Below, one piece after another: positions 15,727 through 55,040 of a stretch of 64,000 bases of DNA (its first letter is position 1; each line of letters begins with the position of its first letter). The stretch lies in assembly GCA_965249835.1 (NCBI GenBank), contig CBDFMY010000003.1:737979-801978 (forward strand), given 5' to 3'. This DNA is from Candidatus Poriferihabitaceae bacterium. GTDB taxonomy: Bacteria > Pseudomonadota > Gammaproteobacteria > Arenicellales > Poriferihabitantaceae. Below the pieces are notes generated by a model that had not been told where the DNA came from, did not search any database, and saw only the letters and a list, made by a program, of their open reading frames with translations. Made by a program: the position numbers and the translations under genes.

Positions 15727-17340
15727 ATGAAAATCATTAAAAAGATATTGCGTATTTTCAGCGCGGTCGTTTTCGCGATGGTGATAAGTAACGCCGCCAT
15801 TGCAGAAACGAAAAGTGAAAGAATTGCAAGGTTGCACATACAAGCCGAGCAGGGAGATGCGGAGCTGCAATATCTTTTGGGCTTTGCATACTGGGATGGC
15901 TACAGAGTGGAAAAAGACCAGCGCGTGGCGGTGCGTTTGTGGCGGATGGCGGTCGAGCAGGGGTATGCGAAGGCGCAAGTTAAGTTGGGCTGGGCATACT
16001 GGCATGGCGAGGGCATTGACGAAGATCAGCGCGAGGCGGTGCGTTTGTGGCACCAAGCAGCCGAGCAAGGGGATGCGGGTGCGCAATCTGCTTTGGGCTA
16101 CGCATATGACAGCGGCGACGGAGTCGATAAAGACCAGCGTGAGGCGGTGCGGTGGTGGCACAAGGCGGCAGAGCAAGGGCAGATGTATGCGCAATATCTT
16201 TTGGGCTATGCATACGATTACGGCGAGGGCATTGACAAAGATAAGCGCGAAGCAGTGCGTTGGTATCGCAAGGCAGCGGAACAAGGGCATGCGGATGCGC
16301 AAGTTAATTTAGGCTATGCATACCGGAATGGCGAAGGAGTTGATAAAGACCCGCGCGAGGCGGTGCGTTGGTATCGCAAGGCGGCCGAGCAGGGGCATGC
16401 GACGGCGCAAAGTAATTTGGGCTATGCATACTCTAATGGGAAAGGTGTTGCTGAGAGCAAACGCGAGGCGATGCGCTGGTTTCGCAAAGCAGCCGAACAA
16501 GGGAATGCGGATGCGCAAAATAATTTGGGCTATGCATACTGGAGTGGTGATGGCGTGATTATGGATAAACGCGAGGCGTATATCTGGTGGTCCATTGCCA
16601 AAGCAAATGGTGATGAGAGGGCAGCGAATAATTTACGCAAAACGGATTGGAACGATTATTTATCCAGTAGCGGAACTCGTGCCGCAAACAAAGAAGCGGC
16701 GCGGCGGTTGGAAGCCATTGAAAATCTCGAAGTAGAGACCGCTTCCGTGCCATCCATCAGCGAAAATATTGCATTGGCAAAACCATCCGGCGGCGTGAGC
16801 ATCGCCGAGAAAGTATTTGAGAACGCATGGCGTTCGGTGGTCATCGTTACCACCGAAGACGGACAGGGTAGCGGCGTGATTATCCGCCCGAATGTGGTGG
16901 CGACCAATTGTCATGTCGTGGATGGTGGGGGCGAAATCATCGTGTATAAATCCGACAATCGCCGCGCCGACACGCCTTTTGCCGCCACCATCCGCCGCGC
17001 CGATGACGAACAGGATTTTTGCTTGCTGGATGTTGCCGGTTTGTGGGGCGTTCCGGCCACGGTGCGGCGCTATGACACGCTCAAAGTCGGCGAGACGGTG
17101 TATGGTTTGGGCGCGCCGCAAGGGTTGGATTTGTCGTTGTCGGACGGGCTGATTTCGCAGTTGCGCGAAATGCGCGGCACGCGGTTCATTCAAACCAACG
17201 CTGCCATATCGCCCGGCTCATCGGGCGGCGGATTGTTCGATGGCGAAGGCAATTTGGTCGGCATTATGACGCTGAAAATCAGTGATGAAAGTGTTGAGGG
17301 TATCGGCTTCGCCATCGCCGCCGATTTGGCGATGGAGTAA
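15727..17340 (+). CDS. Secreted Sel1-repeat (about 7 repeats) / trypsin-like (S1, DegP-type) serine protease fusion
   Basis: The signal peptide is MKIIKKILRIFSAVVFAMVISNAAIA-ET. It is followed by repeated GYAYxxGxGVxKDxREAVRWYRKAAEQG units. The C-terminal domain carries the catalytic triad context NCHVV, DFCLLDV and SPGSSGGGLF. Confidence 0.85.
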   Translation: MKIIKKILRIFSAVVFAMVISNAAIAETKSERIARLHIQAEQGDAELQYLLGFAYWDGYRVEKDQRVAVRLWRMAVEQGYAKAQVKLGWAYWHGEGIDEDQREAVRLWHQAAEQGDAGAQSALGYAYDSGDGVDKDQREAVRWWHKAAEQGQMYAQYLLGYAYDYGEGIDKDKREAVRWYRKAAEQGHADAQVNLGYAYRNGEGVDKDPREAVRWYRKAAEQGHATAQSNLGYAYSNGKGVAESKREAMRWFRKAAEQGNADAQNNLGYAYWSGDGVIMDKREAYIWWSIAKANGDERAANNLRKTDWNDYLSSSGTRAANKEAARRLEAIENLEVETASVPSISENIALAKPSGGVSIAEKVFENAWRSVVIVTTEDGQGSGVIIRPNVVATNCHVVDGGGEIIVYKSDNRRADTPFAATIRRADDEQDFCLLDVAGLWGVPATVRRYDTLKVGETVYGLGAPQGLDLSLSDGLISQLREMRGTRFIQTNAAISPGSSGGGLFDGEGNLVGIMTLKISDESVEGIGFAIAADLAME

Positions 17341-17755: not shown

Positions 17756-18700
17756 ATGACCAAAGAAAATATTTCAATAAGTGATTCGGCATCCAGTGTT
17801 AGAGGTTTTATTGACGCACCATGGATGCAGCATATTTGTAAAGAAGATATTGCTTATTGGCATATGCTTTGCAGTAGTTTGGACGCTATTGAAGACACTG
17901 AGTTGGCGATTGATGCTTATTTTAGTTCGTCTGATGATATAGAAGTAGGCACTAATTACTTGTTGATTTACGGAATACTGCAGTGTCTTTTTGTTCAACA
18001 AGATGCTGTATGCCACATTGCGGAGTCTTTATCTATTAATATTGAAAAAGATGATTCCCTTAAACAAATTCGTGATATAAGAAATAAGGCAGTTGGGCAC
18101 CCGACCAAAACAGGCGGAGGTAAAGGTAAATCCCATAATTTTCTTTCACGATTCACAATGAACAAATTCAGTTTTGATTTAATGATAACTTATCCGAACA
18201 ACGAGCATGATATTAAGAGCATTAATATTCCGGGTTTGATAGAAATGCAACAAGATAAGTTGGTGTGTGCTATGTCAAAAATTATACAAGAGTTAAAGAA
18301 AAGAGAAATGAAATATAAAGATGAATACAAAAAGAATGGAAAACTACAAAATGTTTTTCCGAATACGCTTGGTCACTGTCTCTCCGCAATTGTAGATACA
18401 ACTTCTGCCTATTCTTCGCGTCGCGAATACGGCACAGTCAACTGTGGGGTAATTGAAGATGTGCTGAACAACTTTAATAAAGAACTTGAAGCAAGGAAAT
18501 TATCGGAAGCGTATCCTGGCCTTAAACATGTATTAAAACAAATTCAATATCCTTTAGAAGAACTCAAAAAGTTTTTTAATAAATCAGATGAAAGTAAACT
18601 GAACAACGAAGATGCTTATATTTTTGCCACTTATTTAAAGTTAAGATTTGAGGAAATTGTGGACATGGCAAAAGAGATTGATACTGGTTTCGAAAAGTGA
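17756..18700 (+). CDS. Hypothetical protein with a HEPN-like Rx4-6H motif, AT-rich
   Basis: The 314-aa ORF contains LKQIRDIRNKAVGHP (R-N-x4-H) after a helical segment. Its stop codon lies 2 nt before the ATG of the next protease gene. Confidence 0.55.
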   Translation: MTKENISISDSASSVRGFIDAPWMQHICKEDIAYWHMLCSSLDAIEDTELAIDAYFSSSDDIEVGTNYLLIYGILQCLFVQQDAVCHIAESLSINIEKDDSLKQIRDIRNKAVGHPTKTGGGKGKSHNFLSRFTMNKFSFDLMITYPNNEHDIKSINIPGLIEMQQDKLVCAMSKIIQELKKREMKYKDEYKKNGKLQNVFPNTLGHCLSAIVDTTSAYSSRREYGTVNCGVIEDVLNNFNKELEARKLSEAYPGLKHVLKQIQYPLEELKKFFNKSDESKLNNEDAYIFATYLKLRFEEIVDMAKEIDTGFEK

Positions 18701-18702
18701 TT

Positions 18703-42159: not shown

Positions 42160-42660
42160 CAGTTACGCCTGAAGGTGACCTGCGGTAGCCGGACCCGCCG
42201 CCTTTAATAGTCCGGCTATGCTGGGCAACACGCTTTTCGTGTCGTCATTCTGGCTCGAAAAACCGGCGGCGAAGCCGCCGCTATTTGCGCGGCTACGCCG
42301 CGTCTGGATCCCCGCCTGCCGGCGAGGATGACGAATTATAAGTAATGGTGAATTGAGAGGACAAAGGCGAGTTGAGATGCCAAAGCACACGAGAGAAAAA
42401 GTCTGGCTACGCCAGAGCACGTTTTAGTGTCACGCTTTGCGTGACAATTATTTACCATTGTCCTCTCAAAAGGACTCATTGCCTTCCGACTTACCATTGT
42501 CCCCCAACCCGTCATTGCCCGGCTTGTTCCGGGCAATCCAGTTATTAAATCAGCGGCGTTAGCCGCTATCATTACCGGCGGCGAAGCCGCCGCTATTTGC
42601 GCGGCTACGCCGCGTCTGGATCCCCGCCTGCCGGCGAGGATGACGAATACTGATTCTTTC
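42160..42660. repeat. Mosaic intergenic repeat block
   Basis: It contains two copies of cggcggcgaagccgccgctatttgcgcggctacgccgcgtctggatccccgcctgccggcgaggatgacgaat (about 42283 and about 42575). It also contains a 170-bp module (42344-42515) that is about 93% identical to 46004-46175. Confidence 0.9.
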
Positions 42661-42966: not shown

Positions 42967-43992
42967 TTATTCCAGCAACGCCAACACCACCACCGGACGC
43001 AACTCATTCAAGCAGTTCAGATGATCGAGCGGACATTCCCGCTGGAAGCAAGGGCTACATTCCAAGCCAAGGGTAAGGCGGTCGCTTTTGTCGGTCAGCG
43101 GCGGGGTGAAGGCGTCGCTGGACGAGCCGTAAATGGCGATCACATGGCAGCCAACGGCGGCCGCAATGTGCATCAGTCCGGAGTCGTTGGTGACCGCGTA
43201 TTTCGCCAGCGACATCAAATCAACCGCCTCGCCGAGGGTGGTGCGTCCGCAAAGATCGGCGCAGCGTCCCTGGCAAAGTCGGTTGATGTGCGCGGCGATT
43301 TCGCGGTCGTTTTTGGAGCCGAACAACCACACCTGCCAGCCGCGCTGCAATTGCCGATTGGCGACTTCGGCAAAATGCTCGGCCGGCCAACGCTTTGCCG
43401 GACCGTATTCGGCGCCGGGGCAAAGCGCGATGACCGGCGCATCGGTGGCAAGCGCGAAGCGCGACGCGGTCTCGGCAACCATCGCCGGCTTCACCGCCAG
43501 TGCCGGTTGGGGGATGTCGTCCAGGCCCGGTGGCGCGGCTTGTTTGCGCATACCGAGCGCGGCGAATTGTTGCACATTGAGCGGCATCACCCGCTGGTCT
43601 ATAACGCGAATATCGTTCAGCAACCCCCGGCGTTGCTCGCCGAGATAGCCGGTGCGCTGCGGGATTTTCGCGAACCACGGCACCAGCGCCGACTTGAACG
43701 AATTCGGCATGACGATGGCGCGGTCAAAAACCATGCTGCGCAGTTGGCGTCCGAGTCGGTATCTCACGCGCAAACCCAACTCGCCATGCCCAAGCGGCAG
43801 ACAAATCCGGTGCGCGACTTCCGGCATGCGCTCCAGTATCGGCATACTCCAGGCCGGTGCCAACACGGTAATTTCGTTATCAATCTGATTGGATTCAGAC
43901 GCACGCTTCAGCACTTTAAACAAACTTTGCGCCATCACCATATCGCCGACCCATGCCGGACCGACAATCAGGGTTTTTTCATGGTTCGCCAT
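42967..43992 (-). CDS. waaF: ADP-heptose:LPS heptosyltransferase II
   Basis: The 341-aa ORF begins MANHEKTLIVGPAWVGDMVMAQSLFKVLK and contains TNDSGLMHIAAAVG, which is GT9 WaaF-like. Confidence 0.85.
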   Translation of the reverse strand: MANHEKTLIVGPAWVGDMVMAQSLFKVLKRASESNQIDNEITVLAPAWSMPILERMPEVAHRICLPLGHGELGLRVRYRLGRQLRSMVFDRAIVMPNSFKSALVPWFAKIPQRTGYLGEQRRGLLNDIRVIDQRVMPLNVQQFAALGMRKQAAPPGLDDIPQPALAVKPAMVAETASRFALATDAPVIALCPGAEYGPAKRWPAEHFAEVANRQLQRGWQVWLFGSKNDREIAAHINRLCQGRCADLCGRTTLGEAVDLMSLAKYAVTNDSGLMHIAAAVGCHVIAIYGSSSDAFTPPLTDKSDRLTLGLECSPCFQRECPLDHLNCLNELRPVVVLALLE

Positions 43993-45541
43993 GCGCTGGT
44001 CGTATGGTGTTTATCACTTAGTTCAAATACATCCGTGAAGCATTTCAATTGCGCCGGCTTGTTGCGCCAGTCGTGTAGAAAACGCCGACGATCTTTGCGA
44101 TGTTTATGTATAAATATGCGCAATGCGCCGGGGATTTTTGATCGGATCGGCGCGGAAAAATCCTGGGTTTGATCGAGATCAATCAGCGCGATGTCTTGCT
44201 CGGTGACCAACAAATTGTGCGCATTCAAATCGCCATGGTAAATCCGCGCGCGGCGCATTTTTTCCAGCAACGCAACCAACCAACTCAATTCCAACTCGTT
44301 CGGTGGCTGATGCTGATACTTTTGCGCCGCCGTGGGGAACTGGTTGAACGCGCAAACAAAATAACTACCCAGCAGAAATGGCCCCCAGCGTTTTTCCACG
44401 AAAGCAATGGCGCCTGGTGTTTTGATGCCGCTGATTTTTAGCAGATGCGCGTTGCGCCAGGCAATGCGCGCCTTGCTGGTGCGCAAACAATATCGCAACC
44501 CGCGAACAATGGTCTTGCGGTTATAGCGTTTAATAATCACCCCCCCCCCCCCCCCCCCCCCCCGAATTTGGCACGCACCACGGTGGTGGAACGCCCATCT
44601 TTCACCATCTCGGCGCGCGCCATCCAATCATCCGGATTTTGGAAAAACGAAATCAACTCAGCGCAATGATACTTGCGCATCCACACCGCCGTTTGATGCC
44701 AACTTTTATGCACCGCGATTTCACTGCCAACGCGAAAACATTCGGCAAGATAACGATCCTTGCAACGCCGCCACTGGTGGTATCGCGCTTGCGCTTGCGC
44801 GCTATTTATATATGCCTTGATATACTTGAAAAACACGCCGCTGGCGGCACACCAGGCAATTACCAAACCGCGCCAGCCGTCAAGGAAACCCAACTGCAGC
44901 GCATAACTTTTGGCGAAGGTATAACCGGCGCGCAACACCACCAACGCGGGATGGAATACGCGCGCCTGCGGTGCCGCCAACTCGGAGTAATCCCGAATCT
45001 TGTCGATGCGAGCATTAAGATTGGCGGTAGTGTAATGATCGACTCCGCCGGCCAGCAGAATCTTTTTGCTATGCGCGTGCAGCACGATGCCTTCGTGTAC
45101 TTTGGCTTGGGAAAATTCGTGCCGGCGACGATCAAACAAACGCGGAATGTGATCTCGCCCCAAGCCGCCACGCTTGATGTGTTTGCCCATGAAAAAATTA
45201 CGCCGGTCAATTACGCCCAGGCGATTTTCATCGCCGTTGGTATCCCACAACGCCAGCGCATCGCACAGATCAACATCCGCAATTTCGTCCGAGTCGATCG
45301 AGAAAATCCAGTCGTGGGTGGCTTTGGTGACGGCATCTCTTTTCGCGTCTCCGAAGCCATTGAACTCGATTTCAAACACGCGCACATTGGCATATATCGC
45401 GGCCCGCGCGATGGTGTTATCGCTCGATCCAGTGTCGCACACCACGACTTCCTCGAAAACCGCCAACGCCTGCAAGCATTGATCTATGGTGCGCGCCGAA
45501 TCGCAAGTAATCATCACCGCGCTGATGTTTGGAATTTTCAT
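43968..45541 (-). pseudogene. GT2 glycosyltransferase fused to an LPS kinase (Kdo/WaaP/InaA family), out of frame at a poly-G tract
   Basis: ORF 44537-45541 encodes a GT-A domain (ISAVMITCDSARTI, SIDSDE) and the kinase N-lobe, ending ...TTVVRAKFGGGGGGGG*. ORF 43968-44627 continues as GGGGGGGVIIKRYNRK...YHGDLNAHNLLV...IDLD. One additional G would join them into a single protein of about 524 aa. Confidence 0.75.
44540..44563. repeat. Homopolymeric C24 tract (G24 on the coding strand)
   Basis: I counted it directly: c at 44540 through c at 44563. Confidence 0.95.
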
Positions 45542-45589: not shown

Positions 45590-46240
45590 ATAAAAAGAGG
45601 TATCCGGGGTGGCCGGATACCTTATATTGTGTCATTTCTGCTAAAGCAGAAATGACGGCGTATTTAACTGGATTCCTGCTTCCGCAGGAATGACGGTCCG
45701 GGGCAAATGACGACAAGGGGCAAAGACGGGCTACGCGCAATTTCGCTCCCGCGCGAACTGTCCTGCACCGTATTTCAACTTAGCCCGTCATTCCCGCCGG
45801 CAGGCGGGAATCCAGAGTGGCGGCGTTAGCCGCCGGGACGCGCTCATACAGTAGCGGTAAGCAACAAACACCATCGCCTTGCCGTCATTCTCGCATCGAA
45901 CGGCGCGGCTTCGCCGCAAAGGAGTCCGGCTACGCCGGACGGCATATTCCACTGGATTGCCCGGCCAATAATAATATGGGCCGGGCAATGACAAATGATA
46001 GGCAATGGTGAATTGAGAGGACAAAGGCGAGTTGAGAGGCCAAAGCACACGAGAGAAAATGTCCGGCTACGCCAGAGCACGTTTTAGTGTCACGCTTTGC
46101 GAGACACTTATTTACCATTGTCCTCTCAAAAGGACTTATTGCCTGCCGATTCACCATTGTCCCCCCAGCCCGTCATTCTCGCCGCAGGCGGGAATCCAGT
46201 TAAATATGTCGTCCGGCGTAGCCGGACTCCTTTGAAAGAG
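45590..46240. repeat. Mosaic intergenic repeat block (dRS3-like ATTCC..GGAAT hairpins plus the 170-bp module)
   Basis: It contains the hairpins gtcatttctgctaaagcagaaatgac, attcctgcttccgcaggaat and gtcattcccgccggcaggcgggaatccag. The segment 46004-46175 is homologous to 42344-42515. Confidence 0.85.
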
Positions 46241-46377: not shown

Positions 46378-47173
46378 CTAATTTTTGCCAAAAACTTCGG
46401 AAAAACATTGTAACTGTTCTGGTTTGCTCTTCCAATCACGCAAAAACCTGCTTTTGTCTTTGCGGTGTTGGCACAAAAACTGGTGCGAGGTTTTCGATGA
46501 AAAATCTTTCACCGAATTAATGTCAATGGCTATTATTCCGTCATCACTTATCAATATATTATCCGCATGGAAATCGCGGTAGTAAATCTGCGCCAGAAAT
46601 AATGTTTCCAGCAGTTTTTTGAACCAGATAATCTCTTGTTTGGTTGGCAGTTGATACTGGTATTTCTCCGCCGCTGTTGGAAAATCATTGAACGCACAAA
46701 CATAATAAGAATCCAAACGAAATGGCCCCCAGCGTTTTTCCACGAAAGCATATGGGGCTGGCGTTGCGATGCCACTAAATAGCAGTAGATGAGCATTTTT
46801 CCAGCAACTGCGTGCTTTGGTTGCACGCAGGCTATGCCGCAATTTGCGGAAAATAGTTTTTGTGTTAGCGTGTTTAATAGCCGCCTTGTAGCGTTTAATC
46901 ACTACCCCCCCCCCCCCCGAATTTCGCGTACACGACCGTGGTCAAACCATCGTCTTTCATCATAACGCCGCCTTCAATCCATGCGTCCGGATTTTGCAAA
47001 AAAGAAATCAGCTCAGCGCAATAATGCGCGCGCACCCACACCGCCACTTGACGCCAACCCTTGTGCGTCTCAATTTCACTGCTATTGCGAAAGCATTGCT
47101 TGAGATAGTAATCTTTATGCTGTCGCCATTTCTTGCTACCGAGCCGTCCGGCGGTTTTTGGTGCGGTGTTCAT
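46378..47173 (-). pseudogene. LPS kinase (Kdo/WaaP/InaA family) paralogue, out of frame at a poly-G tract
   Basis: The N-terminal ORF reads MNTAPK...DDGLTTVVYAKFGGGGGSD* and the C-terminal ORF reads (V)IKRYKAAIKH...YYRDFHADNILI...IDIN. Both halves are homologous to 43968-44770. A tract of 13 or 16 G would restore a protein of about 264 aa. Confidence 0.75.
46905..46918. repeat. Homopolymeric C14 tract (G14 on the coding strand)
   Basis: I counted it directly. It sits at the position equivalent to the C24 tract in the paralogue. Confidence 0.95.
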
Positions 47174-47415
47174 CAATAACCATCCATCTCCCGATACGGT
47201 TCATATCTCCCCGGTCCGAATAAACTCATCGGATACGCCGCGGCGTTGATGAACGACTTGACGCCACGCCAGCGTTGACCGGGCAGGAATATCGCGAACG
47301 GCAACAGGACAACGCCTTTGACAAAATAAAACAACGCGCCGGCCAGGATGTGCGTCGCCGGTTTTGCGTTGTTGATGCGGAACAGATACGTGGCGATGCT
47401 TGCAGAAATCAGCAT
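47173..47415 (-). pseudogene. Orphan 3' fragment of a GT2 glycosyltransferase gene (paralogous to 49511-49740)
   Basis: Its 80-aa translation, ...KPATHILAGALFYFVKGVVLLPFAIF...YPMSLFGPGRYEPYREMDGY, aligns with the C-terminus encoded at 49511-49735. No catalytic N-terminal part is present. Confidence 0.7.
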
Positions 47416-47437: not shown

Positions 47438-47902
47438 TTAAGAAATGCAAATTTTCGGCAATGCTTGCTTGTTTTTAATATGATAGATATGTTTCGTTTT
47501 ATTACGCAATGAAATCTTTTCGGTGGTTAATTTTCTGCGCGCTGATGGGCTAACGCCTTTGGAAACCCAAACGGGCATAAAATCGAATGCAGAACAATCA
47601 AGAGCGGGATCGTTATTCAGAAAAGTACAGACAAAAGTGGCACCACCTTGTAATTGTGCTTTTACTTTCGTTACATCAGAGATGTTAGTTTTTCTTTCTA
47701 CCAGATAAATACCAGTGATGTTTTGGTTTATATTGAAAAAGATAAATTCATCACATCGTTTTCCAGTAGCATTTCGCTGCATACGAAAAATACAATCCAC
47801 ACAAAAAACAACAGGTCTTGTTACATTTTTCAGTTGGTATTCTGATGGAGGTTGAATTGCGCAACTTGTATGCCTCGCACAAAATTCCTGCTTAATCATC
47901 AT
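47438..47902 (-). CDS. Hypothetical small protein with a possible PD-(D/E)xK nuclease motif, AT-rich
   Basis: The 154-aa ORF contains ...KRCDEFIFFNINQNITGIYLVERKT..., a D...E-x-K arrangement. Its start overlaps the ATPase stop codon by 8-11 nt. Confidence 0.5.
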   Translation of the reverse strand: MMIKQEFCARHTSCAIQPPSEYQLKNVTRPVVFCVDCIFRMQRNATGKRCDEFIFFNINQNITGIYLVERKTNISDVTKVKAQLQGGATFVCTFLNNDPALDCSAFDFMPVWVSKGVSPSARRKLTTEKISLRNKTKHIYHIKNKQALPKICIS

Positions 47903-49412
47903 TGTTATCCCTTTCGTCTAGCAGGCTAATTGTCCGATTATACAAAGCGGAAGAAACCTCTAAATGGTCTTTGGTTAAAATGCCGGTTTCACGATCAAAC
48001 TGGATTTTCTTGACGGCGGTATTTTTGTACTTGCTTCTTCTTGGCTGATTAAATAAATAAACAGAAATTTTTTCTTTGTTTAGTGTTTGTCCGTTAATTT
48101 CAGTACTCGATAGTTTGGCTTGCTTGTTTTCTTTAGCGTTACGTATATCCGCCGCGAGTATACAATTGCCGATTTGCTCCAATATGTTGTCGCTATGGGT
48201 GGTGATTAATACATGAACACCAGCATTGACCAACTGCACTAGAATATTGGATATTTCCACTTGTGCGGCGGGGTGCAGATGGGCTTCCGGCTCTTCAACA
48301 ATAAATAGATCGTCGCAATTAACATGGTGACGAGCGAATAAAGAAACGGGTGCTAGTTCTGAAACCATGGATGACACGCTCATTAACGGCAAATCATGTT
48401 TTTTTCCATCGCTTTCAAACGCATAGCGGAAATCCGGGTAACGCGTCTCAGACATTTGCACATTTATTTCCCCCCCCATGATTTTTTTCTCTATTCCCTT
48501 GCCAATTTCATCAATTTTCTTCCTCTGTTTTTTTCGATCGTGATTATAAAGAGATTTTCGATAAAATCCATATCTTCTTTGAAATCTTCTATCAGCAATG
48601 GAGACATCCATGTTAATTAATTTTTGCATGAAATCCGATAAAACGCCGTTAAAAAGTGGAATGGGTGGTACTTTGCTTAGCCCTGCCATTGGAGCGCGCT
48701 CAATTAAAGCACTGACAAGGGTGCGGTGACTCTGCATGATACCACCACGGATTGCAGGCAAATAATGAGGAACAGTGTGTGCACTAATCCCTTCTTCTTT
48801 GTCTAATAAAGAAGTAGAAAAGTGCTTGTCTAGTATCTCTGCATAATAGCGCTGTATAATATGCCGATGGAATATGGCTCTTTCATCTGGCTCTTCCTCA
48901 TCAAAACGATCTTTAATAATTCTTAACAAATCGTTGTTTATCAATGTGCGCAGTTCCGATTTTTTTTCATCAGTTAACTTACTATTGTCTGGAGAAGATA
49001 AATCTAAAATAAGTTGGTTTTTGCTGTCAGATATTACGATGGAGATTTTTCCATTTTCGTTCATCATCATCTTTCTTCCCTCTTCACCGAAACAGTAAAC
49101 AAACTGCTCTTTCCAGGAGGCGCTGAAAATGTTTGCCCATAGAAGAAAGCGTTTTTCTATTTCTTTTAATGTGACTTGATTTTTTTGTAAACTGGCTAAA
49201 TCCGATTTCTCCCCCTTATCCATTTCCCTTCGAATTTTATAATGCATGTTCTCCCATATATCGCCGTCATCCCCAAACACTTTGATAATTGAATAAATCA
49301 ATATCGCTAGGTAGGATTTTCCCGTATTACTGGGGCCGACAAAAACAGTCATAGGTTTAACATCCACCTCTGCTTTACGAATCGGCCCGAAATTTTTCAC
49401 AATAAGTTTCAT
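47892..49412 (-). CDS. ABC/OLD-type (AAA_15/AAA_21-like) ATPase, AT-rich
   Basis: I chose the start at MKLIVKNFGPI, after a GGGAGGAAA ribosome-binding site. The Walker A motif is GPSNTGKSY, the Walker B/D-loop is LFIVEEPEAHLHP, and the H-loop is ITTHSD. A long helical insertion lies between them. Confidence 0.75.
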   Translation of the reverse strand: MKLIVKNFGPIRKAEVDVKPMTVFVGPSNTGKSYLAILIYSIIKVFGDDGDIWENMHYKIRREMDKGEKSDLASLQKNQVTLKEIEKRFLLWANIFSASWKEQFVYCFGEEGRKMMMNENGKISIVISDSKNQLILDLSSPDNSKLTDEKKSELRTLINNDLLRIIKDRFDEEEPDERAIFHRHIIQRYYAEILDKHFSTSLLDKEEGISAHTVPHYLPAIRGGIMQSHRTLVSALIERAPMAGLSKVPPIPLFNGVLSDFMQKLINMDVSIADRRFQRRYGFYRKSLYNHDRKKQRKKIDEIGKGIEKKIMGGEINVQMSETRYPDFRYAFESDGKKHDLPLMSVSSMVSELAPVSLFARHHVNCDDLFIVEEPEAHLHPAAQVEISNILVQLVNAGVHVLITTHSDNILEQIGNCILAADIRNAKENKQAKLSSTEINGQTLNKEKISVYLFNQPRRSKYKNTAVKKIQFDRETGILTKDHLEVSSALYNRTISLLDERDNNDD

Positions 49413-49510
49413 TTCATTTCCTCCCGTGTTTGATGCGCTGTAGTATAAATCAGAAAATACGAGAGATGCAATCCACATGGTTTCATGTCATCACCCAGCC
49501 GTCCGCGCCA

Positions 49511-50421
49511 TCAATAACCATCCATCTTCCGATACGGTTCATATCTCCCCGGTCCGAATAAACTCATCGGATACGCCACGCTTTTCAGGAATGATTTTCC
49601 ACAACGCAAACGTTGTTCGATGGAGAAAATAGCAAACGGTAACAATACGACACCTTTGATGAAGTAAAAAACCGCTTCAACCAGAATGTGCGTTGCCGGT
49701 TTTTGTTTTTTGGTTCGGTTGGCGTAAGTAAGCACACGAACACGATTATAGTGACGCCTGAGGGTGAACCACCCCCCCTTGATGATGGCCGCGCGCCTCG
49801 GCCGGTGCGGTGTCGGGATTGGCTATCCACGCATTCGCTTTGCAACGCGGGTCGGCGATGAACTGCGCGCCGGCAGCGATGGCACGCTTGCCAAAATCCG
49901 TGTCTCCGCCGCCGGTTAAGTTAAACAACGGGTCATAGCGAATCTTAAGATTGCGGTAAATGCGCGCCGAGATGATGATGTTTCTGGATGGCAGTGGTGG
50001 GTTCTTTACCGCTTTATATTCGCCGTGCGCAGGACCAACGGCATCACCGCCGGTTTCCCGAATAACCGTGTATAAATCTGTCAACCAGGTCGCGCTCACC
50101 GGTCCCTCATCGTCATCAGTGCTGGCGATGTAGTCGGCGCCGATTTTGATTGCGTAGTCGAACAGATGATTACGAATGTTGCTGTGTCCGCGTTCGGCGC
50201 ACACGCGGTAATTCACTGGAAAAGGCGCATTGCAAGCAAACTCTTCCACGACTTCGCGCGCTTTCATCTTTGTCGTTATCGGCAACGACCATACGCACCT
50301 CGACGTTTTCGGGAAGCGCGCTCTCGCCGATGGATTGCAAACATATCGCCAGCATCCGTGGACGCATACAGGTCGGTATGCCAATCAGTATCAGCGGTTG
50401 CGGTGCTTTGGCGCGATTCAT
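49511..50421 (-). pseudogene. GT2 (GT-A fold) glycosyltransferase with two frame disruptions
   Basis: The N-terminus reads MNRAKAPQPLILIGIPTCMRPRMLAICLQSI...ADNDKDES in frame 1. It continues as AREVVEEF...ASTDDDEGP in frame 2, with the switch near the (CG)n run at 50255-50261. It then continues as W FTLRRHYN...PMSLFGPGRYEPYRKMDGY in frame 3, after the G7 tract at 49772-49778. Confidence 0.65.
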
Positions 50422-51245
50422 TTCGCCGCCCCGAAATACCACCCCAGCGCAAACATGGCAATCGCCACAACCAGCCGCAACAAACGCCCACGATATTTTG
50501 TCCATCGGGTATCATAATTTCGCACATGCTTGCCGAAGCCGGTGTGTTTGACCGCATCGTTTTCCAAAAGCACAGTGAAATAACCCTGCGCGGCGTAGTG
50601 TTCGCTTGCGATCATTTCCATGTCGGCCAGTGATTGTCCCTTTGCCACCAACGATGCATAGCCACCGTCCGGATATTGCGCTCGTCGCCGCAAACCCGGA
50701 TTGAAAGAAAAACACTGGCTATGGGAAAGCGTGGTATTGACTCGGTAATACGCAATGCTTTGCACCGTTTTCCGCTCAGCAAGAACCCAGGCACACGCGC
50801 CATAAAAAGCAAGGTCATGATGATAACTCCGCAAGTGCACCATCAAGGATTGCGGCTCCGCCTCCAGCACTGTTTTGGAGTCTTCGATAAAACCCGGGCG
50901 GTAAAACAACCAGTCGTCTTCGCAGTGAAAAATATAGTCGGTCTTTACTAACCGATACGCTGTATCAATGGCCGAAACCTGGCCAATTTGCGGCTGGTTG
51001 ATAATCAAATCGATTCGCTCACGATATTCTGCCGGAATGATATTGCGAACCTCGTCCTTGCCGGAATCCTCGATTAAAATGAATTGTGAAATGGGATAAG
51101 TGTTGTGTTGAAAAAAACTATGCAATGTTTGTGCAAGCAGATTAAACCGGCCGCAACTGGTCAGAACGACGGTGACATCGCTGGTTTTGGAAAACAGGTT
51201 ATCCATTTGCAGATTGTGCGGAGAAATCAAATAGTGATTGCCCAT
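50418..51245 (-). CDS. Glycosyltransferase (GT-A-like) with a C-terminal membrane anchor
   Basis: The 275-aa ORF contains VTVVLTSCGRFNLLAQTLHSF, LIEDSG and HCEDDW (DxD-like) motifs. Its stop codon overlaps the next start codon (ATGA). Confidence 0.6.
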   Translation of the reverse strand: MGNHYLISPHNLQMDNLFSKTSDVTVVLTSCGRFNLLAQTLHSFFQHNTYPISQFILIEDSGKDEVRNIIPAEYRERIDLIINQPQIGQVSAIDTAYRLVKTDYIFHCEDDWLFYRPGFIEDSKTVLEAEPQSLMVHLRSYHHDLAFYGACAWVLAERKTVQSIAYYRVNTTLSHSQCFSFNPGLRRRAQYPDGGYASLVAKGQSLADMEMIASEHYAAQGYFTVLLENDAVKHTGFGKHVRNYDTRWTKYRGRLLRLVVAIAMFALGWYFGAAK

Positions 51246-53196: not shown

Positions 53197-53958
53197 TCAT
53201 CGCGCAACGCCTTTGTCCGGTTTTATGTTCAACGCATACCAATAGGGTTCGAACGCCTGCTCGGCCGCATCCGCAACCATCTTCACAAAAGCGCTGTAAT
53301 TATTTTCAGTGCAGGACAAATCAAGCGCATCATAATATTCAAGGCGTTTTTCAACAGGAATAATCACCGGCGGGAAACCGCCTTTCATCAGTTCAAGATT
53401 CATCAACAACCGAGAAGTTCTGCCATTGCCGTCAATAAATGGATGCACTTTCACAAAATCCGCATGCACCCGCGCCGCTCTTTCGATTGGATGGAGTTCA
53501 AGCGCCGCGCTTTGATACCATTCAATAAATTGCGCCATTTTTACAGGCACTTGTTCGTGCGCCGGCGGGAAATGTCGAGCGCCCCCAATAATGACATTAA
53601 CCGATCGATACACGCCTGCATTTGCATTATCGATTTCTTTTAAAACCATCTGGTGAATGGCTTTTATATCTGTTTCCGTTAATGATTGATTTTCCTTGAC
53701 GATTTTCTCCATCAACGAAATCGCCGCATGGTGGTTGACAACTTCGAGATGCTCGCGCAGGGTCTTGCCGCCAATGGTAATGCCTTCCAATACAACCTTG
53801 GTTTCCATTAAGGTGAGGCTGTTGCCCTCGATGGCATTGGAATGATAGGTCCAGCGCAATGTAAAATCTGTGTGCAGGTTGCCAACCGCCTCGGGCGGAA
53901 GCGGTCGAAAAGAATCCAGTTTCAGTTTCAACTGGTCGAGTTTATTGTACTCAATCAT
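53197..53958 (-). CDS. fic: Fic family protein (class II, with an intramolecular inhibitory motif)
   Basis: The Fic motif is HPFIDGNGRTSR, and the N-terminal SNAIEGN fits (S/T)xxxE(G/N). I chose the start at MIEYNKLDQ, whose ATG overlaps the upstream GT2 stop codon (ATGA). Confidence 0.85.
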   Translation of the reverse strand: MIEYNKLDQLKLKLDSFRPLPPEAVGNLHTDFTLRWTYHSNAIEGNSLTLMETKVVLEGITIGGKTLREHLEVVNHHAAISLMEKIVKENQSLTETDIKAIHQMVLKEIDNANAGVYRSVNVIIGGARHFPPAHEQVPVKMAQFIEWYQSAALELHPIERAARVHADFVKVHPFIDGNGRTSRLLMNLELMKGGFPPVIIPVEKRLEYYDALDLSCTENNYSAFVKMVADAAEQAFEPYWYALNIKPDKGVAR

Positions 53959-55040
53959 TGTTTTAGCGGCGCCGCCAATTGATGCGCCACTTTCATCGCG
54001 TAACGCCATTGCCCGGCGCGAAGCGCGTAAAAAAGCACGCCGCGTAGCACTTTTTTCAATGTTCGTCGGTCGTGTTTGTCGGTGGCAAGGGTAGTCAACC
54101 CGTCAATGATTTGCTCGGCGGCGTGGCTCATTCCGTTGCGTAGCGAGCGTCTGCACCAGTGGCGCGCGCTTTTCATGCAGGCCGCCTTGATTGGATGCGG
54201 CAAGGTTTTGAGCGCAGGAAGCAAGTCGCACGGGGGCGAATCCGCGGCGGTCGCATGATCAATCGGGTCGGCGACACCCTGTCGACGGCAATGCGCCGAC
54301 AACACAGCCGCGCACCAATAGTGCCAGAACAAAACCTGATTTTGGCTCATGTTATTTGCAGACCCTTCGGGGTATTGGCGATATTGACACAGCGGCGGTG
54401 CGTTGAGATGCGCGATGCGGTGTTTTTCCGCCATGCGCAACGAGAGATCAAAGTCCTCCAAAAAACCACGAAACCACGGACGATAAGTTGCGCCCGTGTC
54501 GTCCAGTGATGACATCCGAATCATCGCGGTCTGGTTGACCAGTATCGGGCCGGGCGGCAGTCGCAACAACTCTTCCAGCGGCACCCCTGCTTCCTGCGCG
54601 GGAGTGCGTGCGCGTTGTGTTTTTATGTGCGCACCGGATTCGTCAATCAATTCGCAACGACACGAAACCGCGGCGTATTCGGGATTTTGGGTAAGAAAAA
54701 CAACCTGTTGTTCCAGTCGTCCGGGATGCGCAATGTCATCACCGTCCATAATCGCAATGAAGTCGCCGCGGCATCTGGCGATTGCCGCATTGCGCGCGGC
54801 AGCCGACCCCGCGTTGTCTTGATGGATGATAGTTACGCGAGCATCCCGCTCCGCATATTCCGTTAATATATCGGCGGTGGCATCGGTCGAACCGTCATTC
54901 ACCACGATCAATTCCAGATCGGTAAAACTCTGGTTGAGGATGCTTTCCACGGCGGCGTGCAGGTACGCCTCGGCGTTGTATGCCGCCATGATCACGCTGA
55001 CCGCGGGTTTTGTCACGGGGGCTGTTTGTGCTTCGTTCAA
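53955..55040 (-). CDS. GT2 family glycosyltransferase
   Basis: The 361-aa ORF contains VSVIMAAYNAEAYLHAAVESILNQSFTDLELIVVNDGSTD and IAIMDGDD. Confidence 0.85.
   Translation of the reverse strand: MNEAQTAPVTKPAVSVIMAAYNAEAYLHAAVESILNQSFTDLELIVVNDGSTDATADILTEYAERDARVTIIHQDNAGSAAARNAAIARCRGDFIAIMDGDDIAHPGRLEQQVVFLTQNPEYAAVSCRCELIDESGAHIKTQRARTPAQEAGVPLEELLRLPPGPILVNQTAMIRMSSLDDTGATYRPWFRGFLEDFDLSLRMAEKHRIAHLNAPPLCQYRQYPEGSANNMSQNQVLFWHYWCAAVLSAHCRRQGVADPIDHATAADSPPCDLLPALKTLPHPIKAACMKSARHWCRRSLRNGMSHAAEQIIDGLTTLATDKHDRRTLKKVLRGVLFYALRAGQWRYAMKVAHQLAAPLKQ

Follow-up and report, generated by a model that had tools for sequence, protein, structure and literature searches.

A gene that joins a family 2 glycosyltransferase (GT2) domain to a lipopolysaccharide (LPS) kinase domain runs into 24 consecutive guanines inside its kinase part, and the question raised by this locus is whether such a run breaks the gene, is a miscount, or switches the gene on and off. 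The gene lies on the minus strand of a 64,000-nt stretch of contig CBDFMY010000003.1 from a Candidatus Poriferihabitaceae bacterium (the stretch is called the window below), and the run occupies positions 44540..44563, where the plus strand reads as an uninterrupted C24. An earlier reading, made from the letters only (the sequence-only reading), had placed the run in a GT2-kinase gene at these positions and proposed a phase-variation-like switch. Our results support this proposal, as relatives carry 9-24 G at the site, both frame states occur among them, and the downstream frame is constrained. We consider it likely that the G24 run is a slipped-strand phase-variable switch, that is, a contingency locus, of an LPS-core kinase gene.

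The reading frames around the tract were examined on the coding strand. The text is AAA TTC, then 24 G, then TGATTATTAAACGC, so that the upstream frame reads AAA TTC (GGG)x8 TGA and gives a 334-aa open reading frame (ORF) ending in eight glycines. This pre-tract ORF (44537..45541, minus strand, 334 codons including the tract) encodes the GT2 domain with its GT-A fold, followed by a long linker helix and by the beta-strands with which the kinase N-lobe begins, and it is identical to the database protein P0025, whose gene lies on a 1.9-Mb contig in NCBI and ENA. The rest of the kinase is encoded in another frame (43968..44540, minus strand), which begins at the last G (44540) with GTG ATT ATT AAA (VIIKRY...), stays open for 190 codons until the stop at 43968-43970, and contains the catalytic lysine, HGDLNAHN and IDLD. 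Both halves of the split that the sequence-only reading had described were thus read directly; as to its statement that the gene is one nucleotide out of frame, the frames hold as assembled, while the exact offset is uncertain by about 1 nt. When the tract was resized in silico, G22 gave a single protein of 523 aa and G25 one of 524 aa, which agrees with the protein of about 524 aa expected earlier for 25 or 22 G.

The fusion gene is in frame only for tracts with n = 1 (mod 3), n being the count of G. If n = 0 (mod 3), which is the state of the window, the tract is immediately followed by TGA, and in the G24 state the downstream GTG and the upstream TGA overlap as GTGA immediately behind the G-rich run. 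With n = 2 (mod 3) the text becomes GGT GAT TAT TAA, or GGT GAT TAT CAA ACG CTA TAA in the sister species. Depending on the lineage, the two out-of-frame states meet a stop after 0-6 codons and yield a product of 331-340 aa, which comprises the whole GT2 domain and only a stub of the kinase.

A chance origin of the tract was excluded by a census of runs, by shuffling and by codon usage. Besides C24, the longest G/C runs in the 64 kb measured 14, 8 and 7 nt, with a single run of each length, and dinucleotide-preserving shuffles of the window gave an expectation of 0.01 for G runs of at least 11. GGG accounts for 17% of the glycine codons in the window genes, yet the loop always uses GGG. Three of the five features that define a contingency locus were tested and found, among them an uninterrupted long repeat inside an ORF, which both the G24 tract and the G14 run described next display.

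The run of 14, absent from the sequence-only reading, interrupts a paralogous, stand-alone kinase gene about 2.3 kb from the G24 tract. This second kinase (46378..47173, minus strand) would be 264-265 aa long if in frame and is split into 92 + 174 codons by an out-of-frame G14 homopolymer (C14 on the plus strand; 46905..46918, minus strand) at the homologous codon position; in silico, G13 restored 264 aa and G16 265 aa. The sites align as ..TTVVYAKF-Gn-VVIKRYK.. in the second kinase and ..TTVVRAKF-Gn-VIIKRYN.. in the fusion gene. On either side of the tract the two genes are 71-75% identical in nucleotides (repeats D1 and D2), the second kinase protein is 54% identical to the kinase part of the fusion, and three kinase lineages, mutually 54-71% identical, carry a tract at this same site. 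In the window, the second kinase gave no Pfam match at E<=0.01, while its relatives in other genomes do match PF06293. Its downstream half has a GC content of 42-44%, against 53-60% nearby, and window-type copies show a synonymous divergence (dS) of 0-0.03, too few substitutions to judge selection. The low GC content and the few substitutions suggest a recently spread segment.

We then compared the tracts in the window and 13 further fetched loci, 14 loci in all. A syntenic locus with 93% protein identity was found on the chromosome NZ_OZ252047.1, a metagenome-assembled genome (MAG) of Candidatus Spongiihabitans sp. (Gammaproteobacteria, Arenicellales, Candidatus Poriferihabitaceae, a family of sponge symbionts), and the bacterium of the window is accordingly a sponge symbiont resembling Candidatus Spongiihabitans. 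In the fusion gene the number of G was 24 in the window, 22 in L006, 19 in L005 and L018, 17 in L007, 16 in L011, 15 in L010, 14 in L001, L008, L009 and L013, 11 in L012 and 9 in L014, and L017 had G6-A-G6. The second kinase carried 23 G in L011, 22 in L007, 21 in L005, 17 in L006, 16 in L010, 15 in L009 and L018, 14 in the window and L008, and 11 in L001, with G6-A-G5 in L014. Tract length thus ranged from 9 to 24 G in the fusion gene and from 11 to 23 G in the second kinase. The comparison among related genomes that had been proposed earlier as a check therefore showed a tract that is not invariant, with alleles both in and out of frame.

The 1-modulo-3 rule held for all uninterrupted tracts except the G9 of L014, whose first base, within GAG, lies one codon position earlier. 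Uninterrupted tracts were in frame in the fusion genes of L005, L006, L011, L018 and L014 and in the second kinases of L007 and L010; the remaining ones were out of frame and spread over both alternative frames, so that all three frames occur. In-frame alleles were present in four of the five fusion-gene lineages sampled. The same picture was seen among database proteins, where P0001 (522 aa), P0026 (523 aa), P0030 (506 aa), and P0031 and P0034 (both 507 aa) are full-length. Two protein clusters at 90% identity hold both full-length members (505-523 aa, with 5, 6 or 7 glycines) and shortened ones (331-340 aa), the latter ending in GGGGG*, GGGGGDY* or GGGGG(G)DYQTL*. An NCBI metagenome contig and the Logan assembly of an SRA run contained truncated alleles as well.

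Two alleles differ from the others in having an interrupted tract. The fusion-gene tract of L017, G6-A-G6, is in frame and encodes Ile-Gly-Gly-Arg-Gly-Val (IGGRGV), and together with the G6-A-G5 of the second kinase in L014 it looks like a phase-variable tract locked by a point interruption. Several loci were recovered from single metagenomes: six came from ERZ25069810, where the two genes were found as OFF/ON, OFF/OFF and ON/OFF, and two from ERZ26167708. The presence of several alleles within one metagenome is only suggestive of clonal switching. JGI metagenomes were scanned for the tract and its flanks as a DNA pattern, with 0 matches, and a protein-based JGI scan returned only 29%-identical relatives, which had no tracts.

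Two further observations were made on these loci. L009 and L010 lie on one contig of 3.98 Mb (ENA ERZ25069810, ctg137365_1158x_l), at about 835-845 kb and 1365-1374 kb, and are near-identical copies of the whole LPS locus with tracts of 14/15 and 15/16; the other large contigs with the locus measure 2.0-3.0 Mb, and two strains may have been joined here or the region may be truly duplicated. In L017 (Logan SRR27456853), runs of G9 and G8 were seen at 532-540 and 2573-2580 in two other glycosyltransferase genes of the locus, which could be further switch candidates.

To see the tract changes against their background, we looked at the sequences around them. L008, L009 and L010 were compared over about 3.7 kb, a stretch that covers the fusion gene together with the second-kinase and heptosyltransferase genes, and they differed only in the two G tracts, one single-nucleotide polymorphism and one indel in a T run. 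The window and L001 were 95.6-97.9% identical over 8.2 kb with only five indels, namely the two tracts (+10 and +3), an in-frame change of 6 nt, (GC)4 to (GC)3, and G6 to G7, four of the five being at simple repeats. Homopolymers of G8, A7 and A9 were the same in both; the G8, in the gene of an AAA_15 ATPase, is in frame and not evidently variable. As indels are few and neighbouring homopolymers are stable, the tracts are hypermutable and change much faster than their surroundings, and the indel census against L001 ruled out general homopolymer noise in the assembly as their source.

Selection on the sequence downstream of the tract was examined next. All 19 post-tract frames examined were open for 175-192 codons, whatever the frame of the tract. 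For the fusion gene, the ratio of nonsynonymous to synonymous substitution rates (dN/dS, Nei-Gojobori) was 0.13-0.33 after the tract and 0.10-0.23 before it, at dS from 0.04 to about 2. The post-tract frame of the fusion gene is thus intact and under purifying selection as judged from these substitutions. Degradation of the gene outside the tract, which the sequence-only reading had named, together with an invariant tract, as speaking against a switch, was not seen.

The domains of the rebuilt fusion protein were then determined. Pfam assigned PF00535 (GT2) to residues 7-115 with 46.2 bits (cutoff 23.3) and PF06293 (Kdo/WaaP kinase) to residues 343-462 with 36.2 bits (gathering threshold 21.3), so both parts of the fusion named by the sequence-only reading scored above threshold. 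In the alignment, the SIDSDE (DxD) motif of the GT2 domain is conserved, in keeping with a GT-A fold, and so are the kinase motifs VIIKRY, IYHGDLNAHNLLV and LIDLD, which correspond to the strand of the catalytic lysine, the HxD....N loop and the metal-binding aspartate. An AlphaFold2 model was made for the in-frame relative P0026 from a 35-sequence alignment (mean predicted local distance difference test, pLDDT, 89; predicted TM-score, pTM, 0.72), in which a long helix (residues 218-267) separates a GT-A domain from a kinase domain. In the model, glycines 326-332 join the strand 319-325 (STTVVRAKF) to the strand 333-339 (VIIKRYN, with the conserved lysine) and form the sole internal stretch with pLDDT below 50, so that the G24 tract is predicted to encode a poly-glycine beta-hairpin turn of the kinase N-lobe. 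Foldseek matched the N-terminal half to the GT2 enzymes SunS, ThuS and TarS (E 1e-10 to 1e-12) and the C-terminal half to PRPK/Bud32 (7szb_C, TM 0.66 of the target), WaaP (6dfl_A, E 6e-9) and Rio1/Rio2; by sequence, only a weak Rio2 match (E 0.08) was obtained for the kinase in the PDB. In the alignment, tract-free homologues have 3-12 unrelated residues at the hairpin turn, e.g. DREP, NGQA and NGMNDMDGDEKM, which indicates that a variable loop length is tolerated. Such a turn is where one would expect a repeat inside an ORF to survive.

An exhaustive HMMER search of 1.84 billion representatives matched only this clade's own cluster as a fusion, which bears out the earlier remark that the fusion is unusual. 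The other matches among the 150 best listed had their best match in the GT2 part or in the kinase part, not both; for the kinase part, the match was mostly to two-kinase proteins of about 450-500 aa, in their C-terminal half. The GT2-kinase fusion thus appears to be restricted to the clade, and is a candidate for an enzyme with two functions in LPS core synthesis. Neither domain has an NCBIfam equivalog. The kinase reached 35 bits with the equivalog model of the Kdo kinase KdkA (NF002475), whose cutoff is 142, and with a score so far below the cutoff it was not filed as KdkA; from its family and context, it may phosphorylate an inner-core sugar.

'Double-kinase' proteins of 430-480 aa (P0007-P0009, P0042-P0047) have the same kinase module, N-terminal extension included, as their C-terminal half. 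One such gene (L002) lies elsewhere on the chromosome NZ_OZ252047.1, at 1.08 Mb, and has no G or C run of at least 7. Similar two-kinase proteins occur in Desulfobacterota MAGs, where they are annotated as InaA-family LPS kinases.

The genes around the fusion gene indicate an LPS core locus. Downstream lies an LPS heptosyltransferase II of the WaaF/RfaF-like GT9 type (42967..43992, minus strand; PF01075, 234 bits; TIGR02195, 434 bits against a cutoff of 134.6), and several more glycosyltransferase genes are found upstream; it is from the heptosyltransferase II and these further glycosyltransferases that the locus was recognised. The start of the heptosyltransferase II gene overlaps the 3' end of the kinase by 25 nt, which places the two in one operon, and they are probably translationally coupled.

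Taken together, these results are consistent with the following mechanism. Slipped-strand mispairing during replication would alter the number of G in the tract, and whenever n = 1 (mod 3) (16, 19, 22, 25...) a GT2 domain fused to a complete Kdo/WaaP-type kinase would be made, the in-frame tract being translated as a poly-glycine hairpin turn of 5-8 residues ahead of the strand with the catalytic lysine. In the OFF state the GT2 domain is still encoded and probably keeps its activity, so that kinase function alone would be removed. The second kinase would switch independently through its own tract at the same hairpin, which would allow up to four LPS-core states, and the symbiont population would hold a heritable mixture of them. 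The overlapping heptosyltransferase gene starts about 570 nt beyond the point of premature termination in the OFF state, and its expression could be lowered in addition. Escape from phages that bind the core, or from being recognised by the sponge's cells, would be the likely benefit. That a clonal line switches reversibly is a step that we infer.

Several points weigh against this explanation. Heterogeneity within a population and reversibility are deduced from consensus assemblies, each tract length may be off by about 1 nt, and individual ON/OFF calls, that of the window included, are soft for that reason. G14 is the commonest length in the fusion gene, partly in near-identical strains, and could reflect shared ancestry or a calling bias. 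About one third of the alleles are ON, as with random frames, with no sign that ON is favoured. On the side of function, the nearest NCBIfam model, that of Kdo kinase, gives the kinase 35 bits against a cutoff of 142, and the second kinase of the window reaches no Pfam model.

A different possibility, which we consider unlikely, is that the kinase is expressed whatever the frame, by slippage of RNA polymerase on the tract or by re-initiation at the GTG, and that tract length tunes the amount. Slippage would be favoured by tracts of 11-24 nt, which far exceed the RNA:DNA hybrid of about 9 bp, and frameshift rescue by transcriptional slippage has reportedly been discussed for insect endosymbionts. 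With re-initiation, the G run would serve as a Shine-Dalgarno-like sequence and two polypeptides would reassemble at the hairpin; GTG and TGA share TG after the tract, gene callers repeatedly called a 175-aa ORF from the post-tract GTG, and the predicted split in a surface hairpin would be favourable for fragment complementation. Purifying selection downstream of the tract, despite most alleles being out of frame, also fits expression independent of frame, but periodic ON phases explain it equally well, and the locked in-frame alleles suggest that the frame matters. Moreover, transcriptome-wide slippage insertions occur mainly in A and T runs, not in G/C runs (PMC5574713).

It is equally doubtful, in our judgement, that the tract is a device with three states, fused, coupled and off, which together with the second kinase would grade LPS-core phosphorylation and be maintained by selection across species and paralogues. 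Here, n = 1 (mod 3) would give the fusion, with a hairpin of 5-8 glycines tuning its activity; n = 0 (mod 3), the state of the window, would give the GTGA stop/start behind a Shine-Dalgarno-like G-rich run, with the GT2 part and the kinase part made as a coupled pair of polypeptides, which may come together again at the hairpin; and n = 2 (mod 3) would be uncoupled and truly off.

We give a somewhat smaller chance to a sequencing or assembly artefact, in which the true tract would be G25 or G22, the gene intact, and the HiFi consensus miscounted by one or two. The names of related contigs in ENA metagenome assemblies (ctgN_coverage-x_c or _l) look, as names, like metaMDBG output from PacBio HiFi data. 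A sponge genome note of the Sanger Tree of Life used PacBio HiFi reads from a PCR-amplified ultra-low-input library and metaMDBG assembly (PMC12988363), and homopolymers are the main residual error of metaMDBG, which polishes them by a racon-like consensus (PMC11392814). If the present contigs were made in the same way as in PMC12988363, any single tract length could err by about one base. A homopolymer of 24 nt is hard for any platform, and a neighbouring gene of the window shows +1 in a G6 run and -2 in a (GC)4 run. A miscount, however, does not explain 9-24 G across assemblies or differences of 3-10 nt between loci that are 94-98% identical, nor does it explain the same behaviour at a second gene or the interrupted, locked alleles; G8, A7 and A9 did not differ between the window and L001, and out-of-frame alleles were not confined to one source, being present in the NCBI contig and the Logan assembly as well. 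An artefact would at most change the state called for this genome, not the nature of the tract.

Finally, a decaying pseudogene, with its kinase part frameshifted and being lost as in host-restricted symbionts, is highly improbable: most alleles are out of frame, a neighbouring glycosyltransferase-like gene of the window has two frameshifts, and the second kinase here is partly low in GC, adjoins a defence island that was inserted, and no longer gives a Pfam match, but 19 of 19 post-tract frames are free of stop codons and extra indels, dN/dS of the fusion gene was low after the tract as before it up to a dS of about 2, four of five lineages hold in-frame alleles, and the catalytic Lys, HGD..N and ID.D motifs are kept.

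The switch proposed here was compared with known systems. Phase variation by homopolymer slippage is textbook knowledge in Neisseria, Campylobacter, Helicobacter and Haemophilus, which are pathogens adapted to their hosts. In the lgt locus of Neisseria, poly-G tracts in lgtA, lgtC and lgtD and a poly-C tract in lgtG make lipooligosaccharide phase-variable. The present locus resembles it in that a G homopolymer lies inside LPS or lipooligosaccharide core genes and its slipped-strand length change shifts the frame, in that several genes of one locus have a tract of their own, and in that the in-frame tract is read as glycines. Unlike in lgt, the tract lies in a kinase N-lobe (residues 326-332), about 200 residues after the GT2 domain and so outside any glycosyltransferase domain, and only the C-terminal domain of a bifunctional protein would be switched; the tracts reach 24 nt, longer than is known for lgt, and the host is an uncultured sponge symbiont of the Arenicellales, not a human mucosal pathogen.

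The poly-G phasome of Campylobacter consists mostly of G8-G13 tracts, about 20-30 per genome. As in the present case, its G/C homopolymers lie in genes for surface glycans and were found by comparing tract lengths among genomes, and the ON/OFF mixtures within its populations may be likened to the alleles described here. In contrast, the 64-kb window holds two tracts, which are longer, and their site is conserved across 54%-identical paralogues. There is no indication of shared descent with the tracts of Neisseria lgt or of Campylobacter. The behaviour of the tracts would correspond, by analogy, to the poly-G switching known from these two, placed here in LPS kinases.

In Haemophilus influenzae, the choline kinase of lic1 (licA), which serves phosphocholine decoration of LPS, is phase-variable. 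There, too, a simple-sequence repeat within the ORF switches a kinase on which a charged LPS decoration depends, the role of the present kinase being predicted. In contrast to the present gene, the repeat of licA is the tetranucleotide CAAT and lies 5'; its product is a kinase of the choline/aminoglycoside family, acts on a small molecule rather than the LPS core, and is not fused to a glycosyltransferase. With KdkA, WaaP and WaaY, the present kinase shares the PF06293 family, a Bud32/RIO/WaaP-like fold, the catalytic motifs and an operon with heptosyltransferase II; it differs from them in being fused to a GT2 domain and in having an extra N-terminal extension of helices and strands, which is common to the 'double-kinase' proteins. 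We know of no phase-variable KdkA, WaaP or WaaY.

Other features of the window were recorded as well. Anti-phage defence genes are interleaved with the LPS locus, one for a PD-T4-4_A-like ATPase (134 bits) and one for a PDC-S04/SoFic-type Fic protein (139 bits). The ATPase belongs to a low-GC (37-44%) two-gene insert at 47438-49478 (minus strand), between glycosyltransferase genes and the second kinase, made up of this AAA_15/AAA_21 ATPase (PD-T4-4_A in PADLOC) and a 154-aa partner without a family match. The 80-aa ORF 47173-47415 corresponds to a second copy of the 3' part of a 303-aa GT2-like gene, so that the insert is flanked by a direct duplication; this ORF had been considered as a remnant of the GT2 domain of the fusion gene, and BLASTP found no similarity. 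In the sister species the same two-gene insert is located elsewhere in the locus. The Fic/DOC-domain protein (53197-54009, minus strand; PDC-S04 139 bits, SoFic 112 bits) is encoded between LPS glycosyltransferase genes.

The 303-aa GT2-like gene (49511-50421, minus strand) contains two slippage-type frameshifts, at about 50262 and at 49772-49778, with changes of (GC)4 to (GC)3 (-2) and G6 to G7 (+1), and is intact in L001, L007, L008 and L011. Only its middle piece, 49746..50384, appears as an ORF in the window. These frameshifts could mean a pseudogene, more repeat-driven switching or consensus errors. The ORFs 49746-50384 and 50418-51245 were also checked as possible further kinase paralogues, which they are not.

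On both sides of the GT2-kinase/heptosyltransferase operon, intergenic repeats were found (42262-42648, 45786-45816, 45917-46234 and 45988-46170). They include a 183-nt repeat, whose copies at 42328-42510 and 45988-46170 are 92% identical, a 75-nt repeat present without mismatch at 42262 and 42574, and, beside the operon, inverted repeats of 31-45 nt with a core, such as CGTCATTCCCGCCGGCAGGCGGGAATCCAG, that resembles proteobacterial elements of the repetitive extragenic palindromic (REP) or miniature inverted-repeat transposable element (MITE) type. At 15727-17340 and 18697-20742 (plus strand), the window encodes large proteins with 6 and 11 Sel1 repeats, respectively, and a C-terminal trypsin-like peptidase domain; in both genes the Sel1 repeats form tandem arrays with a 108-nt unit. 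Sponge symbionts typically encode eukaryote-like repeat proteins.

Full-text literature searches returned no report of simple-sequence-repeat phase variation in sponge symbionts. The name given in public annotation is 'glycosyltransferase family 2 protein' for one half of the fusion gene and 'hypothetical protein' for the downstream half of the paralogous kinase. In long-read MAGs, surface-glycan genes that appear frameshifted at a long G run should be neither called pseudogenes automatically nor silently polished into frame. For a cyanobacterial sponge symbiont, LPS alteration has been proposed to serve escape from phagocytes and survival of phages (PMC4453008). If the switch proposed here is true, an abundant uncultured clade of sulfur-oxidising-type Poriferihabitaceae would keep its LPS inner core stochastically heterogeneous, which would bear on how symbionts evade the phagocytic cells of sponges and survive phage pressure.

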